In this document: piece after piece, positions 592-57,616 of the stretch
How the letters are laid out: every line of letters starts with the position of its first letter
Position numbering within the stretch: the first letter of the stretch is position 1
Source: an uncultured virus (IMG/VR IMGVR_UViG_2860823798_000002)
Taxonomy: Duplodnaviria; Heunggongvirae; Uroviricota; Caudoviricetes
Virus record (IMG/VR): IMGVR_UViG_2860823798_000002
DNA length: 64,000 nt
Strand: one strand, 5' to 3'
Translations under genes and position numbers: made by a program
Notes under the pieces: generated by a model
Seen by the model: only the letters and a program-made list of their open reading frames with translations
Databases searched by the model: none
What the model was told of the DNA's origin: nothing

Positions 592-978
592 TTATTTAAG
601 TCCGAAATGTATAAGCAACCATGCACCGACTAACGTTGCGATTACAGTAGGTAAAACCTTGTACATGAGGTCTTTACCGAATTGACCTGGATCAATTTTT
701 CTATTGGAATCTGATTGTTCCAGAATGCCCACTCGATTGTCGAGTTTTTCATATGATTTGCTTAGATTTTTTAAGCTGTTATTCATCTCAGTCAATGTGA
801 CAAATTGTTCGCGCGATTGTTTTTGGGCATCTTTGTTTATTTCGATTTGCTGTTCCATAAGAGTTGTTAGTCGACTCATGTCTTCAGTTCTTGCTTCTAA
901 ATTTGTAATTTTTTCTTGATGATTTTTCATTTTTTCTTCTAAGACACTTAACCGTGTATTTACATCTACTTCAGCCAC
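592..978 (-). CDS. holin-associated coiled-coil membrane protein (XhlA/BhlA-like role)
   Basis: Coiled coil plus C-terminal TM helix, between lysin and holin. Confidence 0.7.
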   Translation of the reverse strand: MAEVDVNTRLSVLEEKMKNHQEKITNLEARTEDMSRLTTLMEQQIEINKDAQKQSREQFVTLTEMNNSLKNLSKSYEKLDNRVGILEQSDSNRKIDPGQFGKDLMYKVLPTVIATLVGAWLLIHFGLK

Positions 979-2353: not shown

Positions 2354-4258
2354 TTAGGATTCACTCTTAGTAGTTATTTTACGAATGTAATCATCTTTGT
2401 TCGTTCCGTAGTAGCCATTGAAATTGGACTCACCCAGAACAATGATACGGCCAGTTCCTTTGGTGTTGGCCACATTTACCTCGGTAGCTTCAGCTTCTAC
2501 TAAAATAGCGAATTCTTTTTCAACACCTCTAATTCGATTTCCTTCTATTCTTCCATCGTAGCCATTCTCAACATAAATTCCTCCACGGCCTCTTTCGCTA
2601 CTTTGTTCTTTATTATTATTTAATACATTATTATCTCTAACATCAAAATGGTCACATTTTTGAACAAATACACCGTTTCGGCCAGTGGTGTTGATCTCAT
2701 TCCTATCAATTGATACATGATAGGACTTTGTAACAGTGGAGGAGGTGTCTCTACTCTTAGCAAGGTATACTGCTTCTGTATCTACATTTGATACTCCATT
2801 GCCAGAAAAAAAAGTGTTGAAGCAACCTTCAACCCACATTCCTCTTCGTCCACCGTAAATTTTATTATTGCTAACGAAAACGTTTCTGGCAAAGACTAGC
2901 TTTATTGCCTGTTCATCATTGTATTTACCAACCTCTTTTCCTTTTAATTTGAAATAGTTGCCCGATATGCGGATTTCATCGTTCCAAGCTATTTCTTTAT
3001 TATAAATTTGACCAAACGCAACAACTCCACTGGATGTATAATCGTAGAAGTCATTTCCTTCAATTAACACGTTTTGTCCATTTTGCGGTCGATTCATCTG
3101 TACACCATCTGCATCTTTAGAGCTTTCAATTCCACCAGCAGCTTGTGAAATACGCACACACTCTTTATTGCGCATGAACACATTATTTGTAATTTTAACG
3201 TTGTTCCATTTAAAAGTTCGAACTCCAGCAAACCCACAGTCCTCAATAACATTATTAAAAATGGTGATATTACTTTGAAAAATATCATAAACAGCATAAT
3301 GGTTCCCTATAGCACAGCCCCAACCGCCTAACAAATCGGATTTTCCAAAATAATTATGCGCAATATAAACATTTGTGTTAGGTGTGCCATCGAATTCTCC
3401 AAATTGATTAAGTCCTATTTCAATGAATTCTCCAAGCTGAATAGCCTCTGAATAATTTCTCTGTCCAGTAAGATCAATAAAACCAGTAAATTTGCTATTT
3501 GTAATTCGAAGATTATCACATCCATTAGCATCAATCGCATGGGCGCTTATTGTATCTTTAAATGTTACATTGTCTATTGAAATATTTTTGGCGTGTCCAA
3601 GGATTATGGAATCCATAGCGCTCGTAGGGTACTTATCAATGTTTGCATAATTCCCATCTAAAATACCGCCTTCAATGATTATGTTTCCTCTTCCTGAATA
3701 ACCTTTGAATTTATCAGTTGGCGTTCCATTAGCAAAAAATCCTCCTGCCCACCCTCTGAGCAGAATACAATTGTGAGCCATAGTCACCCGAGTATTTTCA
3801 TAGACGAACATTCTTTTTTCAATTAAATATTTGCCACCGGGAATAAAGAGTTGTCCTCCGCCTTCTTTATGAATTTCATCCAGCGCTTTTTGAATAGCCC
3901 CGGCCGAAGGTTTTTCCCCAGTAGGATCTGCTCCATAACTAAGAACATTTTTAAAATAAATTTTTTTATTTAGGGAGCTGGAGCTTTCATTAATTATTTT
4001 CTCCAGATTAGTTATTTTATTATCAACGCCTTTATCCAATTGATCCACTTTCTCATTGATTTTGAGAAAGTCAGAGTCAATTCTTTCTTTAGCTGATGAG
4101 TAAACGTGATTATCATTGTCAATCTTTATATCATCTAAAGATTTAATATCATCAGCAGTATATCTATTGTTTTCAGATTTTAATCCTACGGCGTCTATTG
4201 GAATCCATTTCTGTGAATCTTCATCATAGTAGCCCATTGTGTTTACAGGGATTGACAT
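2354..4258 (-). CDS. yomE: tail spike / beta-helix depolymerase
   Basis: NVLSYGADPTG...AIQKALD...LFIPGGKY (pectate lyase 3-like) followed by parallel beta-helix repeats. Confidence 0.85.
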   Translation of the reverse strand: MSIPVNTMGYYDEDSQKWIPIDAVGLKSENNRYTADDIKSLDDIKIDNDNHVYSSAKERIDSDFLKINEKVDQLDKGVDNKITNLEKIINESSSSLNKKIYFKNVLSYGADPTGEKPSAGAIQKALDEIHKEGGGQLFIPGGKYLIEKRMFVYENTRVTMAHNCILLRGWAGGFFANGTPTDKFKGYSGRGNIIIEGGILDGNYANIDKYPTSAMDSIILGHAKNISIDNVTFKDTISAHAIDANGCDNLRITNSKFTGFIDLTGQRNYSEAIQLGEFIEIGLNQFGEFDGTPNTNVYIAHNYFGKSDLLGGWGCAIGNHYAVYDIFQSNITIFNNVIEDCGFAGVRTFKWNNVKITNNVFMRNKECVRISQAAGGIESSKDADGVQMNRPQNGQNVLIEGNDFYDYTSSGVVAFGQIYNKEIAWNDEIRISGNYFKLKGKEVGKYNDEQAIKLVFARNVFVSNNKIYGGRRGMWVEGCFNTFFSGNGVSNVDTEAVYLAKSRDTSSTVTKSYHVSIDRNEINTTGRNGVFVQKCDHFDVRDNNVLNNNKEQSSERGRGGIYVENGYDGRIEGNRIRGVEKEFAILVEAEATEVNVANTKGTGRIIVLGESNFNGYYGTNKDDYIRKITTKSES

Positions 4259-8547: not shown

Positions 8548-11500
8548 CTAAATTTTAACCCCTCTAGCTGATACAATGTTAAATGCTTCTCCTAAGAATT
8601 TATTTGCATCATCTTTAGAGCCAGTCATCTTATCTACATTAAAGTTAAAATTAAATGTTTGGTTACTTGTCGTTTGATTAGATGCAGCATTAGGGGAAGG
8701 GAGTGTAGCTTTTGTTTGGATATCTCCAAAAATGTTTCGGGTGAGCTCAACAATTTTCAAGACATTGCTTGTATCAGCTTTATTTAAAACAAGTTCTTGT
8801 TCATGGAGCATTGCAAGTCTTCCTGAACTGCCCCATGTTCCTGTATAGCCACCCACATCAAAAGAGGCAACTTTCTTACCTGTGGTATTTCCAGCGACTA
8901 CAACATTTAAAGCTTTGGAGGCTTCTTTAAGCTTATCAATTAGATTGTTGGAGATACTCTTACCAATAGATTCCATGTTGCTGTTAATGAACTTTGAAAA
9001 CTCGTTAAGCTGCTTGGCGATATCGGTAATCTTTCCATTCATCAACTTATCCTCAAGCTTTTTAAATGCTCTTTCGTCGTTGACAAGATCATCATACTTG
9101 GTGTTTATTGATTTCTCATCTTTTTCAAGTTGATCCTGTAATGCTTCTTTACGTTTAGAATTCTCACGATCCTTTAAAAATTCATCAAGATCTTGTTGTT
9201 GTTCTTGGAGTTGCTTATCTAAATCTTTTAGTTTTGCTTTTGCCTCATCTGAATCATCGAGAGACAGTTTGCTTATCTTGTCTTTTGTTTCTTGAATGGC
9301 ATCCTGTTTTTCTTTAAGGGATTTCTGGAACTTGGCTTCGTCGTCTTCTTTATCAATTTCATCGATTATATCTTGAGTTGCTTTTCGATGTGCTTCCAGC
9401 TCAATATCACGCATCTTTTCGTACATTTCTTTATAAATTGAAACGACTTCATCTGCGAGTGATTTATAGATATCTTTAATGGACTTCTTGGTGTTATAAA
9501 GCTCCAGGTTGTATTCCTTCTGTTTATCCTTCCAGTTTTCAATTTCCTCTGTGATTTGTTTCTGGATGTCAGGGAAACCTTTAGCTGCCTTTTTCTGTGC
9601 TTCAAGTTGCTTAATGTACTTTTTTGCTTCAGCTTGTTGCTGTTGAATCAATTTTATTTGCTGACTGTAGTACTTGACTTTTTGATTGTCATCCTCAGTC
9701 ATTTGAATCTTGATATCAACATCTTTAAGCTTGGATTCAGTTTTCTTAACAGATTTCTCAATATTATTGAGTGTCTGGTCAACCTGTGACTGAATTAGTT
9801 CCCCTTGTAGCTCTCTAACTTGGTCTTGCAAGGAGATGAGATCTAATTTAGCCTGTTTCAGCTCTTCTCTTAGTTGATCGCGTTGAGCATAGTTAAGTTT
9901 TTTATTTGTTTTTAACTCTTTGTTGATCCAGTTAATTTTTTGTTGTTGAATTTTGCGTTGCTCGTCAACAGCTTTCTTCTGCTCATTTGTATATTTGCGA
10001 AATTCCTTGCTGTCAGAAAGGTAACGTTTGGCTAAAGACTCATTTTTAGCAATTTTGACTTCTAGATCAGATTTCCGTTTATCAAATTCATCAAGCTTGG
10101 ATTGAACCAATTCGTATTGCAGGTCTTGAATTTGATCATTAACTGCATCTAAATCACCTTGCAAACCGATTAAATCCGATTTTGCCTGTGAAAGGGCTTG
10201 TTGTCTTTCAGCTTCAGACTGAGAAAGATCTGAGGTTAAACCCTGCATATACTTTTCTGGGTCAATTGGTTTGCCATTTTGCTCAATTTGTAGGTGGAGG
10301 TGGTTTCCTGTTGAGTGTCCAGTGCTTCCTACTTTACCTATTGTTTGGCCAGCAGATACAACATCACCTTTCTTAACTTTAAGGCCGTTTTGCATGTGCA
10401 TATATTTTGCAACTGTTCCATCATCCTGTTGAATGACAACCCAGTTACCTGCTGTTTTTGAATAGGTAGCGGTTATGACTTTACCAGCTTTCAATGCTTT
10501 TACAGGGGTTCCAGCTTTGGCTGCGAAGTCGGTTCCTTTGTGAGGAGAGGAGCGGAGACCACTTTCTTTTTGGCCAAACTTTGAGCTTACTCTAAATCCA
10601 TTCGCGCTGGTATAGTAATTAGCGATTTTTGATGTCGCGGTAGATAAGCTCTTATTGTAGTTAGAAAGAATAGTCTTAACGTAATTTTGTGTTTCTTTGA
10701 AAGGAGGGACGCCACCATATTTAATAACGTTTCCTGGCCCCGCGTTGTAAGCAGCTAAAGCTTTCTCGATGTTTCCGCCAAACTTGTTAAGCATCTGAGA
10801 AATATATTTTGTGCCGCCCATAATGTTTTGGTAGGGATCATATGCATTTTTTACACCTAGACTTTTTGCAGTACTAGGCATGAGTTGCATTAAACCCATT
10901 GCTCCAGCGCTAGAACGAGCTTTGGCATTGAAGCTTGATTCTTGTTTAATAATTGCCGCGATTAGGGCAGGGTCAACACCATATTTGCTTGCCGCAGCAT
11001 TAATGTAAGAAGAGTATTTTCCGGAATATGATCCTCCAGAAGAATATGAGCCTGATGAAGAACCAGAAGAGGAAGAGGAGGTAACAAGTCCAGTTTGAGG
11101 AATATAACCAGATTTGATTTGCTGTTTCAGCAGTTTAATCTGATCTTGCATCAGCTTTTTCTTACGCTCTAATGCCTTGATTTCCTTATTGATTGCGTCT
11201 CTGTATTTTTGTGACCATTTAGGATAATCATTGGTTTGCTTGTTGTATTTCTCAATTTCCGCATTTACTTTTTCAAGGGATTCTTTATATTTATCAATGA
11301 CGTATTTGGATTTCTCAGTTTCTTTGCTAGCTTTTTCTTGTTCATCAGAATATTTCTCAAGGGACGTACCAACTTCATTTAAAGATGAGTTGGCCAATTC
11401 AGCCATTTTATCCAGATCTTCTAACTGTCCAGTGACGTCGCTCAACTCGTTTATTTCTTTAATGATTGGCATTGCCATCTGGATATTGCCACTTTCCATC

Positions 11501-14500
11501 AAAGTGTCTACTTGTTTTCTCATTTTGGAAAGATTGGCTTGCGCATCGGCAACAGTCTGGATTGATTTGACCTCTAAACCATAGTTCTTTATTTTCTTTA
11601 CTGTTGCGTTTGCCTGGTTGATTAGATCCTGTTTAACTGACTTTTGCATGTCGTTGTATGCTTTAAGTTTTGCATCACGTAGTTTTATGATAGCATCTCG
11701 GTTTAATTTAACTACGCCGTTTTCAACACTAATAGCTCCAGCCAAGTCTTTTTCTTTTTGAACCAGTTTCATTGCTTCAGCAGCTGAGATGCTTTTTCCT
11801 TCAGCCATTTTCTCAAGCAGTTCATTGAGAGGGGAGATGGAGTCAGCAAAAGAATCATATGCTTCATTTTGAAGGGCAGAAATAGCTAGTTCTGTTTGTT
11901 GAGAAGCCACCAGATCGTCCATTACAGCTTTTATTGCCTCTAGATCACCTTTGGCATCCTTGAGTTTTTGACTTAAATCTTCAACTTCTCCTGTTAATTC
12001 GCTTACACCTTCACCATTTTCATCCCAAGTGATCTTTGCAGAATCAGCAGCATTTTTTGTAGAGTCTATAGCATTCTTTAGGTCATCATAAGATAAGGAA
12101 AGTTTGTCAGCTTCATCAGAACCTTTGATTTGTTGGTTAATTAAATTCTGAAGTGCTTGAGATGCTCTTGAGAAATCAACTTTATTTCCTGATTCTAATG
12201 CTTTCTGAATGTCATCCATGTATTTTGAAACATTAATGGAAAACGACTCTAATTCATCAGAAGTCATCTTACTAAAGTCAATTTTATTGAAGGCTTCGTT
12301 AATATCTTTGGTTAACTGAGGGTTGATTTTAAGGGAGTTATAAGCGTCAACAGTTTGTAGCACCTGTTCTCTAAGTTTAGCTTGAGAACTAGATAACTTT
12401 TGGTTGACTTGAAGAGCTTGTTGTTCAGCTTTAATTCCAAAATTTTTATAATCACTGTCGCTGTCGAAGATATCCCAGAATGGTCGATCGTTGTTTTTAT
12501 AATGGTCTGCGACTTTTTGATACTCTTTCATTTCATCAGTCAGATTACTGATATCACTGAGGGTTTCTTTAAAGTTGCTATTTGCGCCAGTTTGAATATC
12601 TTTTTTGTTTAATTCGGCTAATTCTTTGGTGTACTTTATGGCATCTTCTAACGCTTCATTATTTTTAATGATGGCATTACCTTGGGAGTCATAGCCAGAA
12701 ATCAAATTAGGGAACGTTTGTGCTAATTGTTGCGTGACCTGTAGATATTCTTGCTCCTTGTCAGGGGAGAGGGAACCGTTATCTTTTGCTTTTTGCAGCT
12801 CTTTATATTTTTGTATTAACTGATCGGTCTGTTCTTTATTTGTGGTTATTGCTTCAACGCTTTTCTTTTGTGACTCTGCAAGCTTTTCTTGTTCTTGTTT
12901 AGCATCAGAAAAAGCAGAGACAAGTTTTTCGATTACGAAGCCTAAAGCCATGAAACCTGCACCAACAACTGTCGCAACCATTAATCCTCTAAGCGCAGTT
13001 TTCAGTAAGCTCGATGCAACTGCTGCACGAGTCATACCCGTACTTAAACCTATACTTGCAAGTGTTTCTTGTCTCATTGCAGAAGTACCGAGCACTAGTG
13101 CGGTTGCAAGAGTTCTTACATTCTTACTAAGAAGGAGAGTAACTGCGCTTGCTAATGCAAAAATACTTGGCAGGAATCCAATCGTTTTTATAACTTCTCC
13201 ACCGACTTGAACGATGTCTCTTAATGCTTCGGCAAAAGCAATTATTCCATCAGAGAGGAAAGCTTCACCTGCATTTGCTGCAAGACCTGTCCAAGCAGCA
13301 GATAATCTGTTTAGGCGACCTTCCAAACTTTCAGAGTAGCGTTCTTGCTCACGCATGGCGCTGTTCTGGCTATTCATAGCACTAGATGTCGCAGAAATTG
13401 CGGTGTCAAAATTTTCCATCAATCCTAGGAATCTCGTATTTTGGAACATGCCCGCTGTTGATACCCCGATTTGCTGCTTCTGTGCCTCAGAGAGGCTGTC
13501 CCACTTAGAAGCAAGATTCTCAAGAATTTCAGATACAGGTATAGCTTCTCCACCTACATCTTTAACTGCAATTCCTACACTCTCAAGACTTTTAATGGCT
13601 GCTCCATTTGTTTGGATTCTGGCGAATATTGTTTTTAAGGCGTTCAATTCTGTTACTTTCACCAAAAGGCTACTGACCATTATAAATGGCGGTGAGGCGC
13701 TTCAACCTCACTCTCTATGTTTCCATAGAGTTCAGACTGTCGCTTCACATTTCTGTGTCTCTTCACTCAGTCGTTCAGGCTACCATTACGCTTGCCCCTT
13801 GTCGTCCTCGACTAAACGTTAGGAGTTCCAAGTCAATCAGAAGAGATTTAATGTCAGCAATCATTTTACCGACAATGTTACCACTTTCTTTAGTGGATGA
13901 TTGAATGGCTGTAGTATCGAATCATTCCATACAACTCGCTACATTGTATGCGCTGTTTACTGCTTATAGTTACCTATAAGTCTAGACTATATCTTCATCC
14001 CATTGGGATGCCTCCCGTTTCGATTTAAGGGGGTCTCACCCACGCCAATAACTTGCGCCCTACTCGTTTTGCGGAATTTCACCGCCTATGCGATAGTCGT
14101 TGAACGTTCCTCAAATGAGGCTTCGCTGCTGATTGTCCTATAAGGAGTTCCCAGCAATTAGAGAGGTTTGTTACCTTTATATTGCTACAAAGGAGGACTA
14201 AGCTTAATCCCAATAACTCTTCCATACTCACGCCATATACTTTTGCAGCGGCAGCTGACTTTCTCATTGATTGAGCCAAGTCCAATGTACTTGTTTGGAA
14301 ATTATTATCAACCTCGTTCAATGCATCGGCGATTTTTAAGCTGTCTTTAGATTGAATTCCGAAGTTGACCATCGCTGCTGTGAGAGCTTTAACGGTATCT
14401 TCAGGTTGTAGTTCACTAATGTTCTCCATCATTTGAGCTGTCTTGGTTAGATCTAATAGCTCATCATCTTTGTAACCCATACGCCCAAATTCGTTCATTA

Positions 14501-15716
14501 TAGTTAGAACATCTGAAGTCTTGTTTGCTAACTCATCACTCAAATCAATAGATTTTTGAAGAAGCTCGTTAAACTTATAATCAGGTAAGTCCATAACCCG
14601 TCGTAAGCCAGTCATTTGAGTGTCAAGCGATATTACTTGGCTGGTGAGATCTTGAAGCAGTCTCAAAGGTGCATAAAAAAGTGTCATAGATGCCATCCAC
14701 ACAGGCACGCGGGACATTGCTACTTGAAGCTGCTCTCCAAAACTCATTGTCTGCCTTGTAGTAGCAGCAATGTTAGAGGACATTTCCCTAAACTGCACAT
14801 TAAGACTAGCCATCTGATTTCTTAGATTAGGTGTCCTTGCAGTTAATTGATTAACTGAATTCAAATACTGTTGAAGCTGTTGATTACTTGCATTGCTCAA
14901 TGAGCTGCCGTATCTGTTTTGCAGGTTCTGAGTATTTACCTGTGCTTGTCTTCTATATAGTTCTAACTGCCTTTCAAGCTCTTTAGTCTTTGCAACTGCT
15001 GCTGACTTGTCATCAAGAGTCTTAAGCTTGACTCTGAGTGCTTCAATTTGTTCTGTAGACTGAGCTAAATTAATTTTTCTTCCAAGAGAGGAGAGGGTGA
15101 CTTCAGACAGTTGCCCTTGCTCTTTTAGTCTTTGTAGGCTTACTCTAAGCTGTTCGATTGCTTTTCTTTGTTGATCAATATTTGTTACAGTGGTTGAGTT
15201 TTTAATATTCCCATTTTGGTCGAGATTGTACGTAATATCCTTAAAACCATCACGATTTTTTTGAGTAGTGCCTGTCTTGATACCTTGAGCATTTTGACGT
15301 TCAATTATCTTTTGAGCTTGGCCAAGCTTTTGAATTTCAGAGGTTAATTTTGCTGTTTCTTGAGTTTCTTGACGAATCTTTTGATTTCGATTATCAATCG
15401 TCTTAATTTCTCGCTGAAGTATTTCTCCATTCTTTTTGTGCTGCTGAATGATTTTTTCAGTTGTCCCATCAGCATTCTTAATGACCGTTTGTGTTTCTTT
15501 AACTGTCTGATTGTAATTCTTAAGATTTTTTTGATATGTTTCAATTGCAGAAGAGAATTCTTTGAGGGTTTTTAAAGCAGAAGCATCAATATTTGTTTGG
15601 AGCTGAAGGGAGTTTAACTTAGATTGTAGTGTTTTAAGTTGCTTGTTAATTTGTTCAACTGATTGAGCGGAGGTGTCGGCAACTGGAGTTACTACAATTT
15701 TTAATTGTTGACTCAA
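8548..15716 (-). CDS. yomI: tape measure protein with lytic transglycosylase and M23 peptidase domains (CwlP/YomI); 3 exons: 15716-14207, 13917-13868, 13644-8548; 2218 aa spliced
   Basis: Removing the two introns gives in-frame ...[32 protein letters not shown]...; SLT motif [10 protein letters not shown]23 motifs HKGTD and HLH. Confidence 0.93.
13645..13867 (-). ncRNA. group I intron 2 (223 nt, ORF-less, compact) in tape-measure gene
   Basis: P1 UGUCGGU/GCUGACA with U-G at splice site; P3 UCUCUUC/GAAGAGA; P7 GACUG/CAGUC; P8 and P9 GAAA tetraloops; terminal G; removal restores frame. Confidence 0.9.
13918..14206 (-). ncRNA. group I intron 1 (289 nt, ORF-less, IA-like) in tape-measure gene
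   Basis: 5' exon ends in U paired with G in P1 (GGAU/GUCC); P AAUUGCUGGGAA, Q AAUCAGCAGC, R GUUCAACGACUA, S AAGAUAUAGUCU; P3 CCUCUC/GGGAGG; P9 with GUAA loop; terminal G. Confidence 0.93.
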
Positions 15717-16062: not shown

Positions 16063-17838
16063 CTAAGCCAAGATATTATGGTTTTTAAATTTCTTTTTAA
16101 GCCCATCAAAGTTGTCTTCTAAATCCCTAGGGTATAAGGAAATTAAAGTGATATTGTTTTTTTGACATATCTTTTTCTTTCTTAGAACTTTTTTTCTGTA
16201 TGCCTCTAATGTAACTAAGCCAAAGTACTCTACAATAATATTATTAATTAACCAATCACATCTTAGTTTCCCAGCCTCTGAATCATTAATTATTTCGCTA
16301 TAAAAAACTTCTTTTTTATACTTTATATCATTTTGATAAAGAAAATTTGTTATCTTCATTTCACTTTCTGACAAACATAAGTCTCCATTCAAAGAAATAA
16401 ACTTCCTTACTTTCGAAAAATTAACTACGAAATCTCTATGAATGCCTAACTTGGAAGCTTTCCAGATAATGTCCTCTTTTGAAAAAGGGGTGAGATTTTT
16501 CAGTAAATCACACCAATCCGTATTAGGATAATGCGATTTTAAATATTGAATTTGTTTTTCTGACCAGCGATTGTTACGGGATAGATTTACATTCATTTTT
16601 TTCAATTGATAGTAAATTGAGGCGGAATGTGAATAGTTGAAGTGATTGGCTATTTCCTGTATACTGTCTCCCGCCAAATACATTTCCTTCATTTTAAATA
16701 AATCATCGTCTGTGAAATCTTTTTTTTCCATATTAATTGGTAGGCCAGCCTTTTTTAGCGCATTATTCCAAGACCCGAAACGGTTTGTGAAGGTATCATA
16801 GTTTAAATCATTTCCCACAAAATCTTTTGCAACAGGGGTTCGATTGTATTTGTCGTAGAAATTCTTCAAAAAAGTTATTAAATACTCATTTGAGAATTTC
16901 TCCTTTCCAAATTTAGCCTTATAAGATCTTTTCAGTCCAAGGCTATTGGCTTTATGCTGTATGGTGCTTTTACTCCTTTTCTTAATAAGAGCATTGTTTA
17001 TTTCTTCATAAGAATAGTCAGCATACATACGCTTTAAGGTTTCGATGTCATCAACATACCATCTGTCACTAGTCATTACTCCAATACTCTCTAAAAACTT
17101 TACCCATCCCCCAAACTTTCGTTCGTAAACAGATGGGGAAGGGGAAGACGGATTTTTCTTTAAATCCTCTAAACTAGGGTATCTTCCAAGATCGTTCTTT
17201 AATTTCCAGTAAAAATTAATCAGATCCTCTTTTGTGAACTTTCTTTTTAAGGGTTTTCTGTAGTGAATTGAACAGTTGCATCTTGGGCTCTGTTTAACTG
17301 AACTCCATGTTCGTTCAGTTGGTTTTCCACATGGGCAAATAAGCAACATTTTTGAATTTGTATTTACATATTTCCCATCGGCTATTGAAAATCCATGTTC
17401 TTTTAGAAAGTTTTCAACATATGAAAAATCTGTTCTCTGTTTTTCAGCATTCTGATTTATTGCACAATCCTTACACCTTTGTCCTGCTCTAAATTTATTC
17501 CAAGTCTTATAATCTTTTTTCCCACACGAACAGATATAAGCCATCTTAGTAGAGCTATTAATATACATGGATTCAAGGAGCTCACAATTATTCTCTTTGA
17601 AAAATTTTTTCACATATTCAAAGTCTAGTTTATTCGGCTTCTTTGCTTTTTTTCTTACACATTTATTGCATTTTTTATGATGGCTGTTTCTAAATGAATA
17701 AAAATTTGTAGTTCCTATTTCTCCGCAAACACATCTGTAAGAAAGTATCTGCTTAACATTTTTAAATTCTGAAATAAGTTCACATCCATGTTTCTTGAAA
17801 TAATCTCGCACAAATTCATGAGTGTATATTTGAGCCAA
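16063..17838 (-). CDS. free-standing putative homing endonuclease (Zn-ribbon repeats, homing-endonuclease-associated repeats, C-terminal Vsr/DUF559-like PD-(D/E)xK nuclease)
   Basis: Three CxCG repeats; two RxPxxxD...RFGSWNNALKKAGL-type repeats; C-terminal SESE...CDWLINNIIVEYFG. Confidence 0.75.
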   Translation of the reverse strand: MAQIYTHEFVRDYFKKHGCELISEFKNVKQILSYRCVCGEIGTTNFYSFRNSHHKKCNKCVRKKAKKPNKLDFEYVKKFFKENNCELLESMYINSSTKMAYICSCGKKDYKTWNKFRAGQRCKDCAINQNAEKQRTDFSYVENFLKEHGFSIADGKYVNTNSKMLLICPCGKPTERTWSSVKQSPRCNCSIHYRKPLKRKFTKEDLINFYWKLKNDLGRYPSLEDLKKNPSSPSPSVYERKFGGWVKFLESIGVMTSDRWYVDDIETLKRMYADYSYEEINNALIKKRSKSTIQHKANSLGLKRSYKAKFGKEKFSNEYLITFLKNFYDKYNRTPVAKDFVGNDLNYDTFTNRFGSWNNALKKAGLPINMEKKDFTDDDLFKMKEMYLAGDSIQEIANHFNYSHSASIYYQLKKMNVNLSRNNRWSEKQIQYLKSHYPNTDWCDLLKNLTPFSKEDIIWKASKLGIHRDFVVNFSKVRKFISLNGDLCLSESEMKITNFLYQNDIKYKKEVFYSEIINDSEAGKLRCDWLINNIIVEYFGLVTLEAYRKKVLRKKKICQKNNITLISLYPRDLEDNFDGLKKKFKNHNILA

Positions 17839-23033: not shown

Positions 23034-23711
23034 TTAAACTTGATGGTTTTTTTCTTTTAAAACCTTTATTTCATCTCTTAGTTCAGCAATTTCTTGTTCC
23101 ATGTCATTGATTTTTTGATACTGTAAGCTATAAAGCAATGAAAAGGAAGTTTCAATTACTTCTTGAAAAATTGATCCCACTAAATAAATATCTTCATTCA
23201 AAGAGGATATCTTATTCAATAATCGCCCTTTACTTATAATCCTCAATTCATCCATTACAATAGCTGATTCAGATTCAAATCCATCAGCAGGAGTAACTCT
23301 CCTGTAACGTTTAAGTCCAGAAGGATTTGTTATTGGATGAAAAGCATCTTTCACTTTGTCAGGACTTGATGTAACAGGTAACACGATCAATTTGTTTTCA
23401 ATTTCATCGAGAATTAGAACAGGATGACAATAAGCAAATTCGAAATTTAGTCCTAAATCGGCTAAAAAGATTTCCCCTTGTTGTGGTGTTACTATATTGT
23501 TCCTTTCCTTATACTGATTAAACCGCCTTCTTTGAATCCAGTTCTGTAAGCTTTTTGTTATTTCTGACAGCTCATCTTCATTAACTTTATAAGAACAGTG
23601 ATTTACAAAGTTAAAAGATGTGAGGAGAAACTCTCTCCATACTTTTTCTGAATCAGAAGCCTTAATATTATTTGATAAATTGTTAAACTTGCTAAAATCA
23701 GGTTTAAGCAT
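23034..23711 (-). CDS. PemK/MazF-like endoribonuclease-fold protein
   Basis: QGEIFLADLG...HPVLIL...LIVLPVTS...MDELRIISKGRL. Confidence 0.8.
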   Translation of the reverse strand: MLKPDFSKFNNLSNNIKASDSEKVWREFLLTSFNFVNHCSYKVNEDELSEITKSLQNWIQRRRFNQYKERNNIVTPQQGEIFLADLGLNFEFAYCHPVLILDEIENKLIVLPVTSSPDKVKDAFHPITNPSGLKRYRRVTPADGFESESAIVMDELRIISKGRLLNKISSLNEDIYLVGSIFQEVIETSFSLLYSLQYQKINDMEQEIAELRDEIKVLKEKNHQV

Positions 23712-23848: not shown

Positions 23849-24850
23849 TTACATAAATATTTGATTCTTCTCTTCTTTAAAATCGCGAAGATCATAGTGT
23901 TTGATTGTAGTGGAGACATCTTCGTGTTGAGCAATGTATTTGCTGACAAGTTCAATCTTGATTTTCTTGACTTCGAGTAAGTAGGTGATACAAGAGGCTT
24001 TAAAAAGGTGAGGGTTGATTCTGCGGCCAAGAATGTCTGACAAAACATCGGAGCAAAAATAATCAGCCCACGTTTCTGACATTTGCTTTGGTTGTCCACC
24101 GTAAGTAGTGGTAAAGAGGTATTCATGATCATACCCACGTTTTTCGTGCCACAGCTTTAAATATTTTAGAGCCTCTGTGTTGATCATATATTCCAACACT
24201 TTGCCTTCACCACTGCCTTTGCCAAATACTTTATGTGACAACACATATTGCTGCCCTTCTGGGATAGGGTAATCTAAAATTTCTGTCTTAAACTGTATGA
24301 TTTCAGCTCTTCTAGCACCTACATTAAAAGCCGTTGCAAGCCAGGCCATTCCTAAATAATTTTCATCTTCCTCAAGGGCTTTCATCATGGTTTGATAATC
24401 TTCATATGTAATTTTTACTTTCTCATAGGTGACTGTCTTAGGTATAGCAGGGAGGCCGCGGGTAAAGTTCCTGAATGTTTTATAATTGTCATCATCTTCA
24501 GCCACGACGTTTTCAATATAGTTATTTAAAGAAGAAACACCAGCTTTTTTTAGTGCGATACCACTGGAAGACATGCCTCTGTTTTTTAAGAAACTTTGGT
24601 ATCTAATGAAGTCACGCTTAGTGATCTTATACAGTTTCTTTCCATTTAAAGAATTATGTACCCACCAAAAGAATTGCCGAAGGGAAGAGGTGTATTGCTT
24701 TCTTGTTTTGTTACGGAATGAGTGAGCATCCAAGAATTCTTCTGTTAAATTTCTGTGCTCCTCATCAACCTGCCCCCACATCTTATCAGTAACATCAGGC
24801 AGCTTCTTTGCACGGGGGCGTATCATATTCTGTTTTATTTCTTTCGCCAT
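23849..24850 (-). CDS. yomM: tyrosine recombinase-family protein
   Basis: GARRAE, GKG, NPHLFK, QHEDVSTTIKHY; 333 aa from MAKEIKQ. Confidence 0.88.
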   Translation of the reverse strand: MAKEIKQNMIRPRAKKLPDVTDKMWGQVDEEHRNLTEEFLDAHSFRNKTRKQYTSSLRQFFWWVHNSLNGKKLYKITKRDFIRYQSFLKNRGMSSSGIALKKAGVSSLNNYIENVVAEDDDNYKTFRNFTRGLPAIPKTVTYEKVKITYEDYQTMMKALEEDENYLGMAWLATAFNVGARRAEIIQFKTEILDYPIPEGQQYVLSHKVFGKGSGEGKVLEYMINTEALKYLKLWHEKRGYDHEYLFTTTYGGQPKQMSETWADYFCSDVLSDILGRRINPHLFKASCITYLLEVKKIKIELVSKYIAQHEDVSTTIKHYDLRDFKEEKNQIFM

Positions 24851-24863
24851 TAATTCACCACCA

Positions 24864-25283
24864 CTATTTAATTGTTTTGTGCCCAAGTTTATTGATATCC
24901 TTGGTAACAGCTTCAATTAATCGACCATCCTTTAAAGCTTCAGCAGTGTTGGCCATAAGCGGCCGAGGTTTACCGTATCCATAACCATATGTATCAGGAT
25001 AGGTATAACCTTCACCAGTTTCAACAACAGTTGCAACATCACGGCCTTCGTCTTCTCGAATGTTATCTAATGAGAGCCCGTTAGCTTCATTTTCAGTTAC
25101 AAAGGAATTTTTCAGCTCGTGAGTTCTTTCATAAACTAGGGGATTGTACACGTCGTAAACATCAGTTTCTACATGTTCTTGCCCAGTCTTGATTAACGTT
25201 TGCTTAGTGCTGCTATTTGATTGCTGGATGGCCTTTAAAGCTTCTGTTTGCACTAAAACGGCGAGATCTTTATAAGTCGCCAT
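24864..25283 (-). CDS. yomN: tail completion/neck-type protein
   Basis: Synteny; 139 aa from MATYKDL; KPRPLM motif. Confidence 0.7.
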   Translation of the reverse strand: MATYKDLAVLVQTEALKAIQQSNSSTKQTLIKTGQEHVETDVYDVYNPLVYERTHELKNSFVTENEANGLSLDNIREDEGRDVATVVETGEGYTYPDTYGYGYGKPRPLMANTAEALKDGRLIEAVTKDINKLGHKTIK

Positions 25284-43898: not shown

Positions 43899-43970
43899 CA
43901 GAGGCGACAGGGATCGAGCCTGCCCACGCGGTTTTGGAGACCGCATCGCCACCGAGGAACATGCGCCCCT
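43899..43970 (-). tRNA. atypical tRNA-Trp (CCA) or tRNA-like RNA
   Basis: Acceptor AGGGGCG/CGCCTCT plus G discriminator, anticodon arm GCGGT-CTCCAAA-ACCGC, T arm GCAGG-CTCGATC-CCTGT; weak D arm, no encoded CCA end. Confidence 0.7.
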
Positions 43971-53999: not shown

Positions 54000-54182
54000 G
54001 TGTTTGATAGGGTAGGTGTTGTGTTGGCTATTGTCTTATCTCTTTCAACGCTGACAATCAATATACTAGCCATTATTGAGAAGTTAGCCGCAATAAGAAA
54101 TAAGACAAGCCATAGACAGCAAAGAAAAAAGCGTATACGAAAGCGAAACCGGGCAAGGCACCGCAGACGTACACGCCTATAA
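54000..54182 (+). CDS. yonT: type I toxin YonT-like
   Basis: N-terminal TM then Arg/Lys-rich tail KKRIRKR; GAAAGGAGG RBS; position. Confidence 0.85.
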   Translation: MFDRVGVVLAIVLSLSTLTINILAIIEKLAAIRNKTSHRQQRKKRIRKRNRARHRRRTRL

Positions 54183-54251
54183 CACAGCAGGCTAGAGGAG
54201 TAATCCTCTAGCTTCACCTACAGTATAACATAATAAAACACAATTTAAAAC

Positions 54252-57549: not shown

Positions 57550-57616
57550 AACAGTCGTGGCGGCGACGTTAAATAGGCATTAAGCCGCCAGCGTTCCCCT
57601 TATTGGGGAGATTGCA
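57550..57616 (+). ncRNA. pistol self-cleaving ribozyme
   Basis: P1 GUCG/CGAC, loop UGGCGG pseudoknotting with CCGCCA, UUAAAUAG linker, UUAAG, GCG, P3 UUCCCC/GGGGAG, P2 GCA/UGC. Confidence 0.85.

Follow-up and report, generated by a model that had tools for sequence, protein, structure and literature searches.

The question raised by this locus is why the tape-measure/CwlP gene of the viral record IMGVR_UViG_2860823798_000002 (IMG/VR), a 64,000-nt stretch of DNA that was analysed whole and is hereafter called the window, is broken in the open reading frame (ORF) listing into two minus-strand ORFs, at 8548-13680 and 14079-15716. The initial annotation had proposed that the break holds two tandem ORF-less group I introns that flank a micro-exon of 50 nt. 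The window very probably carries an SPbeta-like Bacillus prophage in which a yomI/cwlP-homologous tape-measure gene is cut by two unrelated, ORF-less group I introns lying 50 nt apart; among its named relatives, a prophage region of Bacillus paralicheniformis KJ-16 comes closest. SLT and M23 domains, both encoded at this locus, are to be expected of a CwlP-type protein.

All parts of the gene lie on the minus strand. Exon 1 (14207..15716), an ORF with a TTG start, carries 503 codons and one base; intron 1 (13918..14206; 289 nt, ORF-less, IA-like) follows the first base of codon 504, at a position termed site C; the micro-exon (13868..13917) supplies the last two bases of that codon (Y504) and codons 505-520; intron 2 (13645..13867; 223 nt, ORF-less, compact, without P2 and without P7.1/7.2) lies at site D, between codons 520 and 521; and exon 3 (8548..13644) adds 1698 codons and the stop. 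Joined by coordinates (1510 + 50 + 5097 nt), the exons form a single frame of 2218 aa whose sole stop is terminal, and the boundaries first proposed for the two introns were borne out to the base. The letters at the two junctions of the coordinate-joined sequence, ...GGAT/ATACT... and ...TCGGT/AACGCC... (the slash marks the junction), are also those that had been predicted.

The joined product is a coherent tape-measure protein. Exon 1 matches PHROG 4211 (tail length tape measure protein, E 3.5e-139), and its residues 388-502 match positions 3-118 of the profile of PF10145, the phage minor tail/tape-measure domain, while the start of exon 3 matches profile positions 136-198; the 17 positions left between them (119-135) equal in number the 17 residues encoded wholly or in part by the 50-nt exon. 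Besides this remainder of the tape-measure domain, exon 3 encodes an SLT transglycosylase (PF01464, E 2.3e-34) and an M23 peptidase (PF01551, E 2.4e-31). Alignment to the intron-less YomI of SPbeta (L001), which the initial annotation had put forward as a check, was free of gaps over 320 aa that span both junctions (53% identity to spliced residues 381-700). At the DNA level, the first junction is fixed by the natural allele L092 and the second by the natural allele L013, each of which has no insert at the position concerned. When all frame-preserving junctions were scanned in 23 introns of the window and its relatives, just one of the equally top-scoring positions combined U(-1) with a terminal G in 22 of them, and the 23rd (site D of L031) obeyed the same rule on reading by eye. 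Because the spliced frame is colinear with SPbeta YomI and the PF10145 match is contiguous, the arrangement of the inserts is more than chance, and the anatomy of the gene and its junctions are directly established.

The two inserts share the hallmarks of group I introns. The conserved core (the P3-P8 and P4-P6 domains, the P3/P7 pseudoknot and J8/7) was placed in both, both end in the terminal G (omega G), and the U-G pair that had been claimed at the 5' splice site was found in both; a U.G pair in P1 together with a terminal G was present in all of the extracted related introns as well (26/26). Intron 1 belongs to Rfam family RF00028, which it matched over the full model (1-253) at 102.7 bits and E 1.6e-25, the gathering score being 50 bits. 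Its internal guide GUCCU (14194..14198, minus strand) pairs with exon GGGAU in a P1 of 5 bp with the U.G pair at the splice site, P2 has 8 bp and a GCAA loop, and P3-P9 were all placed. The helices P7.1 and P7.2 are the defining feature of subgroup IA. Intron 1 has this feature: the spacer that separates the 5' strand of P7 from P3', put earlier at about 70 nt and called IA-like, is 77 nt and folds as P7.1/P7.2 (extension at 14027..14093, minus strand, with two compensatory pairs in P7.1). Across four relatives, 97.8% of the cells of the fold were paired, and compensatory change was seen at five pairs, located in P7.1, P8 and P9.1.

Intron 2 is built differently. Its guide GCUGACA (13852..13858, minus strand) pairs with exon UGUCGGU in a 7-bp P1, and just 6 nt separate P1 from P3, so that there is no P2, in agreement with the compact form originally described; P3, P4, P5, P6, P7, P8, P9 and three 3' hairpins complete the structure. 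In an alignment of nine distinct sequences (492 cells), 99.8% of the cells were paired, compared with 31-49% in controls in which the partners had been slid, and eight compensatory pairs were counted, compared with 0-1. These pairs are located in P1, P5, P6, P7, P8, P9.1 (two) and P9.2. The outermost pair of P1 shows covariation between exon and guide (AU 4, UA 4, UG 1; n = 9), the change on the exon side being a synonymous one (AUU/AUA, Ile) that is matched by the guide. The conserved fold is thus an observation for intron 2 as it is for intron 1.

Family-model searches of the type recommended by the initial annotation succeeded for intron 1 and fell short for intron 2, which scored 27.9 bits against RF00028, below the gathering score (E 6.5e-5 in a 1-kb search), and was not listed at E<=0.1 in an Rfam search of the whole 64-kb window. 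The introns of the same type in L018, L031, L096, L061, L091 and L094 had no Rfam match either, and against phages in GenBank, intron 2 gave merely 13 weak partial matches. Its group I membership is assigned by structural features, since the RF00028 score lies under gathering. A low score that is missed in larger searches is what would be seen if 13645-13867 were some other small insertion and the frame were restored differently. Against this stand the complete P1 and P3-P9 layout with its P3/P7 pseudoknot, the eight compensatory pairs including the exon-guide covariation, the presence of U(-1) and a terminal G at the sole junction that keeps the protein colinear, and a core sharing 72-88% identity with numerous other phage inserts that have the same J8/7-P7 motif. 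We accordingly give this alternative next to no credence and treat 13645-13867 as a compact group I intron.

The distribution of both introns among relatives was assessed with a 180-aa query from the start of exon 3 against species-representative genomes (one per species) and IMG/VR, which yielded 10 and 80 loci, respectively (90 in total, not de-duplicated); the best match among the species-representative genomes, at 90%, was B. paralicheniformis KJ-16. The gene is interrupted in 19 of the 90 loci and uninterrupted in 67, which are colinear over residues 251-900, and L021, L022 and L101 gave partial or weak matches only. The site-D introns of L061, L062, L091 and L094 were bridged by tblastn and detected by a motif scan. 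In the tape-measure homologue of L071, a change of frame at window residue 746/747 (near position 4178 of L071) was also seen, either a frameshift or a sequencing error.

Inserts occupy six positions, given here as codons of the window product: 464 (A), 470 (A2), 474.67 (B), 503.33 (C), 520 (D) and 591.33 (E). All six fall within ~130 codons, and no gene has more than three introns. Sites C and D are both occupied in the window, L023 (entries under this label are letter-identical to the window), L024 and L026; C, D and E in L096; D and E in L092; C alone in L013 and L025; D alone in L018, L077, L087, L097, L061, L062, L091 and L094; A, B and D in L029 (the same as G001); A2 and D in L031; and A and E in L020 and L102. 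In L029, the nearest provirus examined, the region 2498-3500 holds introns of 275 nt (codon 464), 337 nt (474.67) and 223 nt (520), with a 32-nt exon (2773-2804) between introns A and B and an empty site C. The related tape-measure introns are all ORF-less and 223-337 nt long. Rfam found 12 RF00028 matches at E<=0.05 across eight of the interrupted loci, and zero matches in nine loci that tblastn had called uninterrupted, six of them intron-less and three (L061, L091, L094) with a site-D intron. Presence and absence of each intron among the relatives are therefore matters of direct observation.

These alleles resolve into two intron lineages. Site D is occupied by one compact lineage, with 82-99% identity between loci, and sites A, A2, B, C and E by a second, IA-like one; no similarity was detected between the sequences of C-type and D-type introns. 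Because the two types are unrelated and each occurs alone in relatives, two independent invasions of the gene, as suggested from the outset, are supported. A case in point is L092, which has D and lacks C in exon DNA otherwise nearly identical to that of the window. Within the IA-like lineage, the site-A intron of L029 (2498-2772) shares 91% identity, over 269 nt, with that at site E of L092 (3715-3987), and the site-A intron of L020 (2511-2792) is ~90% identical to site-E introns such as L096 3223-3498. To judge from these identities, a single intron lineage occupies two different sites (codons 464 and 591.33) in different phages. At sites A, A2 and E, the exon ends in ...CGAU at the splice site, opposite the guide GUCG, and the corresponding exon and guide letters are GCGGU and GCCGC at site B and GGGAU and GUCCU at site C.

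Both lineages have kin outside the tape-measure genes. The bnrdF intron of SPbeta/phi3T bears a yosQ-type HNH ORF (Lazarevic, 1998/2001, cited in PMC8270828). Its phi3T form is 94% identical to the core of intron 1 between P3 and P7', and both introns come from SPbeta-type Bacillus phages. The identity lies in two blocks, at intron 1 positions 39-87 and 98-223 (49 + 126 nt), the first extending from P3 as far as the P6 stem and the second from that stem to P7'; they flank the HNH ORF of the phi3T intron. The two introns are unrelated in P1-P2 and in all that lies 3' of P7'. The position of the HNH ORF is taken in the window by a short P6 hairpin, so that the introns differ in their host gene (tape measure versus ribonucleotide reductase) and in the replacement of the endonuclease ORF by a hairpin. 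Neither window intron bears a homing endonuclease, as 289 and 223 nt are too small for an endonuclease ORF. We suggest that intron 1 and the endonuclease-bearing bnrdF intron of phi3T-type phages share a recent common ancestor, with intron 1 having lost the endonuclease gene and differing in its P1/P2 and P9 parts.

A 17-nt motif of intron 2, spanning J8/7-P7', recurs in at least 120 IMG/VR stretches, of which 80 were read (L103-L182); three of these represent the present tape-measure site. By Pfam, some of the others are flanked by additional tape-measure genes, by capsid (L117, L130), portal (L137, L149) and NrdD (L135) genes, and in L112 and L170 by pieces of GIY-YIG or NUMOD3; the majority of the flank fragments had no Pfam match. 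A separate observation concerns L145, a 112-kb IMG/VR contig in which two copies of the compact-core motif (401-417 and 915-931, minus strand) are found in a different tape-measure gene at a distance of 514 nt, with PF10145 on both flanks and the profile broken at 131/132.

The exons themselves carry traces that bear on how the introns come and go. Over 1050 nt of spliced coding DNA, the window and L092 differ at 69 positions, 58 of which fall in two tracts: 15 around site C (-12..+34; C occupied in the window only), with one amino acid change, and 43 around site E (-31..+74; E occupied in L092 only). In the 135 nt around the shared site D there are zero differences. This clustering looks like the pattern expected when an intron is gained or lost through recombination with a diverged donor (exon co-conversion), and in the available part of the paper by Tourasse and Kolsto (2008), such a pattern is described as not expected of reverse splicing (PMC2504315).

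An agent for such recombination may be sought upstream of the tape-measure gene, where a free-standing gene at 16063-17838 (minus strand; 347 nt away) encodes an endonuclease-like protein of 591 aa with two homing-endonuclease-associated repeats (PF18780, E 2.2e-24) and Cys-rich N-terminal repeats, matching PHROG 559 (HNH endonuclease) and 681 (endonuclease). Endonuclease-less introns can be mobilized by free-standing endonucleases in trans, or collaboratively, as described for mobE/I-TevIII of T4 in the accessible part of PMC2790892. The window resembles what is reported there in combining endonuclease-less introns, conversion-like exon tracts and a nearby endonuclease-like gene, and departs from it in that this gene is absent from most of the intron-bearing relatives. 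As a general mobilizer the 16063-17838 gene was rejected, being present among the loci searched in L023 and L024 only, in partial form in L096, and absent from the three-intron G001. It is conceivable, if unlikely, that the PF10145 stretch of SPbeta-type tape-measure genes is a contested landing zone on which ORF-less introns are moved in trans by free-standing endonucleases. During co-infection, or when prophage and phage recombine, such enzymes, the 591-aa HNH-repeat protein being one candidate, would cut those alleles of competing phages that lack an intron; alleles that have one would be immune, and a short tract of exon would accompany them as they are copied in. The same lineage might retarget to CGAU-ending sites through its 4-nt guide. 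Were this so, the crowding of introns would reflect competition among phages and not neutral parasitism.

The reading preferred here, that of two group I introns removed by splicing, has several points weighing against it, beginning with the poor Rfam performance of intron 2 described above. P10 is weak, with two contiguous pairs in intron 2 and no contiguous P10 in intron 1, the P1 of which is just 5 bp. The covariation of intron 1 comes from four sequences that amount essentially to two lineages, and two of five measures were not above shuffles. No endonuclease is tied to the introns as agent of the conversion-like tracts. RNA data are of a similar kind. Contigs of RNA libraries X1, X3 and X4, plus those of X15, the kind of which is unknown, were considered (food-fermentation samples, 24 runs listed); among the contigs of the three RNA libraries, neither the joint of 14207 to 13917 nor that of 13868 to 13644 was found, and one contig ran unspliced from exon 1 into intron 1. 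Rare forms are dropped by assembly and DNA may occur in such libraries, and these contigs neither demonstrate splicing nor rule it out. Two candidate signals were discarded. An X3 contig in which 14207 is joined directly to a diverged micro-exon is, by eye, the L092 allele, from which intron 1 is absent in the DNA, and not spliced RNA. In X1, words of the intron core reach a depth 10-30x that of the exons; the high-depth contigs continue into other sequence, so that the depth comes from other intron copies.

Read most pessimistically, the missing spliced RNA, the weak Rfam score of intron 2 and the weak P10 of both introns would fit a decaying pseudogene in a defective prophage, with both inserts dead intron relics and no full-length tape-measure protein made. 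This is highly improbable, as the three exons are open and in register over 2218 codons, the paired positions vary only compensatorily across relatives, and the same introns are found in many otherwise intact tape-measure genes, including that of a provirus rated 99% complete.

For functional introns, catalysis in vivo is what we infer from these comparisons, as is the route of mobility. In the late transcript each intron would fold on its own, intron 1 into P1-P2 and a P3-P9 core with P7.1/P7.2 and intron 2 into P1, directly P3-P9 and the three 3' hairpins. Each would bind free guanosine and cut after the exon U paired to a guide G, and its terminal G would then be used in the joining of the exons. 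Only doubly spliced mRNA would encode the 2218-aa protein, and tail assembly can on sound grounds be expected to depend on double splicing. The earlier statement that skipping of the 50-nt exon shifts the frame proved correct: when the micro-exon was skipped in silico, a stop codon fell exactly on the new junction and a 503-aa product resulted, so that a transcript spliced in this way would give a 503-aa stub.

That stop lends itself to a regulatory interpretation, in which inefficient or conditional removal of one intron, or exon skipping between the 5' site of intron 1 and the 3' site of intron 2, would yield an N-terminal fragment of 503 aa beside the full protein and so set the ratio of the products. 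Precedent exists in exon skipping by phage group I introns, reported for orf142 of Twort and for a polymerase gene of Bastillevirinae in the available part of PMC11878797. The window introns, however, have neither sequence nor build in common, so that the splice sites of one are less likely to be used with those of the other than is the case in Twort, and close relatives lack one or the other intron in a gene that is otherwise unchanged, so that no conserved need is visible. A control function is quite improbable on this evidence. The introns would instead be selfish passengers and not regulators. They hold two of the six or more sites that are occupied in related prophages along ~130 codons of the conserved PF10145 domain, each intron being gained and lost independently by DNA recombination that would exchange a few dozen bases of flanking exon as well.

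The novelty implied by the initial annotation was overrated. In prophage tape-measure genes of the Bacillus cereus group, Tourasse and Kolsto (2008) described group I introns at three sites (TMP-IVS1, IVS2 and IVS3a/b), with related introns at two sites having different P1 helices, different introns at one site, and similarity to the ribonucleotide-reductase introns of SPbeta (available part of PMC2504315). As far as that account goes, the two cases agree in placing several ORF-less group I introns with IA-type folds in one Bacillus prophage tape-measure gene, with occupancy that varies among strains. They differ in that the window phage is SPbeta-like with a hydrolase-fused protein of ~2200 aa, whereas the TMP-IVS phages are lambda01-like; in that the window introns lie 50 nt apart and six sites are crowded into ~130 codons; and in that intron 2 is compact and P2-less, unlike the IA1/IA2 introns of TMP-IVS, the resemblance being one of kind, taken from the published description.

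A second parallel is orf142, the tail tube gene of Staphylococcus phage Twort, with three group I introns and exon skipping (Landthaler and Shub, 1999, as summarized in the available part of PMC11878797). On that summary, both are tail structural genes with several group I introns, very short exons between them and possible exon skipping, but they differ in gene and host, and splicing was demonstrated experimentally in Twort, whereas the window introns are known from sequence. No description of introns in SPbeta-type tape-measure genes was found in the literature searched, and a review of SPbeta mentions, in its available part, those of bnrdE/bnrdF as the sole introns (PMC8270828). The window introns are a new and soundly documented example of an already known layout, that of multiple tape-measure introns and micro-exons; what they add is the allelic series, the conversion-like tracts and the link to bnrdF.

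Elsewhere in the window, 57553-57616 (plus strand) matched the Pistol self-cleaving ribozyme (RF02679) over the full model, with a score of 59.3 bits (gathering score 34.5; E 2.9e-8). A match to the Bacillus SR6 antitoxin RNA (RF02892) at 54120-54215 (minus strand; 48.8 bits, just below the gathering score of 55) may mark a type I toxin-antitoxin locus of the prophage. An ORF of 225 aa at 23034-23711 (minus strand) contains a PemK/MazF-like toxin domain (PF02452, E 3.1e-6) and adjoins an integrase-like ORF at 23849-24916. A low-scoring tRNA-like match (RF01852) at 43900-43970 (minus strand; 29.9 bits, gathering score 47, E 0.074) is probably due to chance or an ordinary tRNA.

For annotation, these results mean that a gene split by ORF callers in two has one true product, a tape-measure/hydrolase protein of 2218 aa, and that at least 19 of the 90 related loci call for a correction of the same kind. 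The known range of kinds of elements carried by phages is unchanged. The near-identical relatives offer a natural series of alleles with and without each intron, on exons that are almost unchanged and show sharp conversion-like tracts. Such material lends itself to studying the spread of group I introns that lack an endonuclease and the movement of one lineage between genes, as from bnrdF to the tape-measure gene, and between sites.

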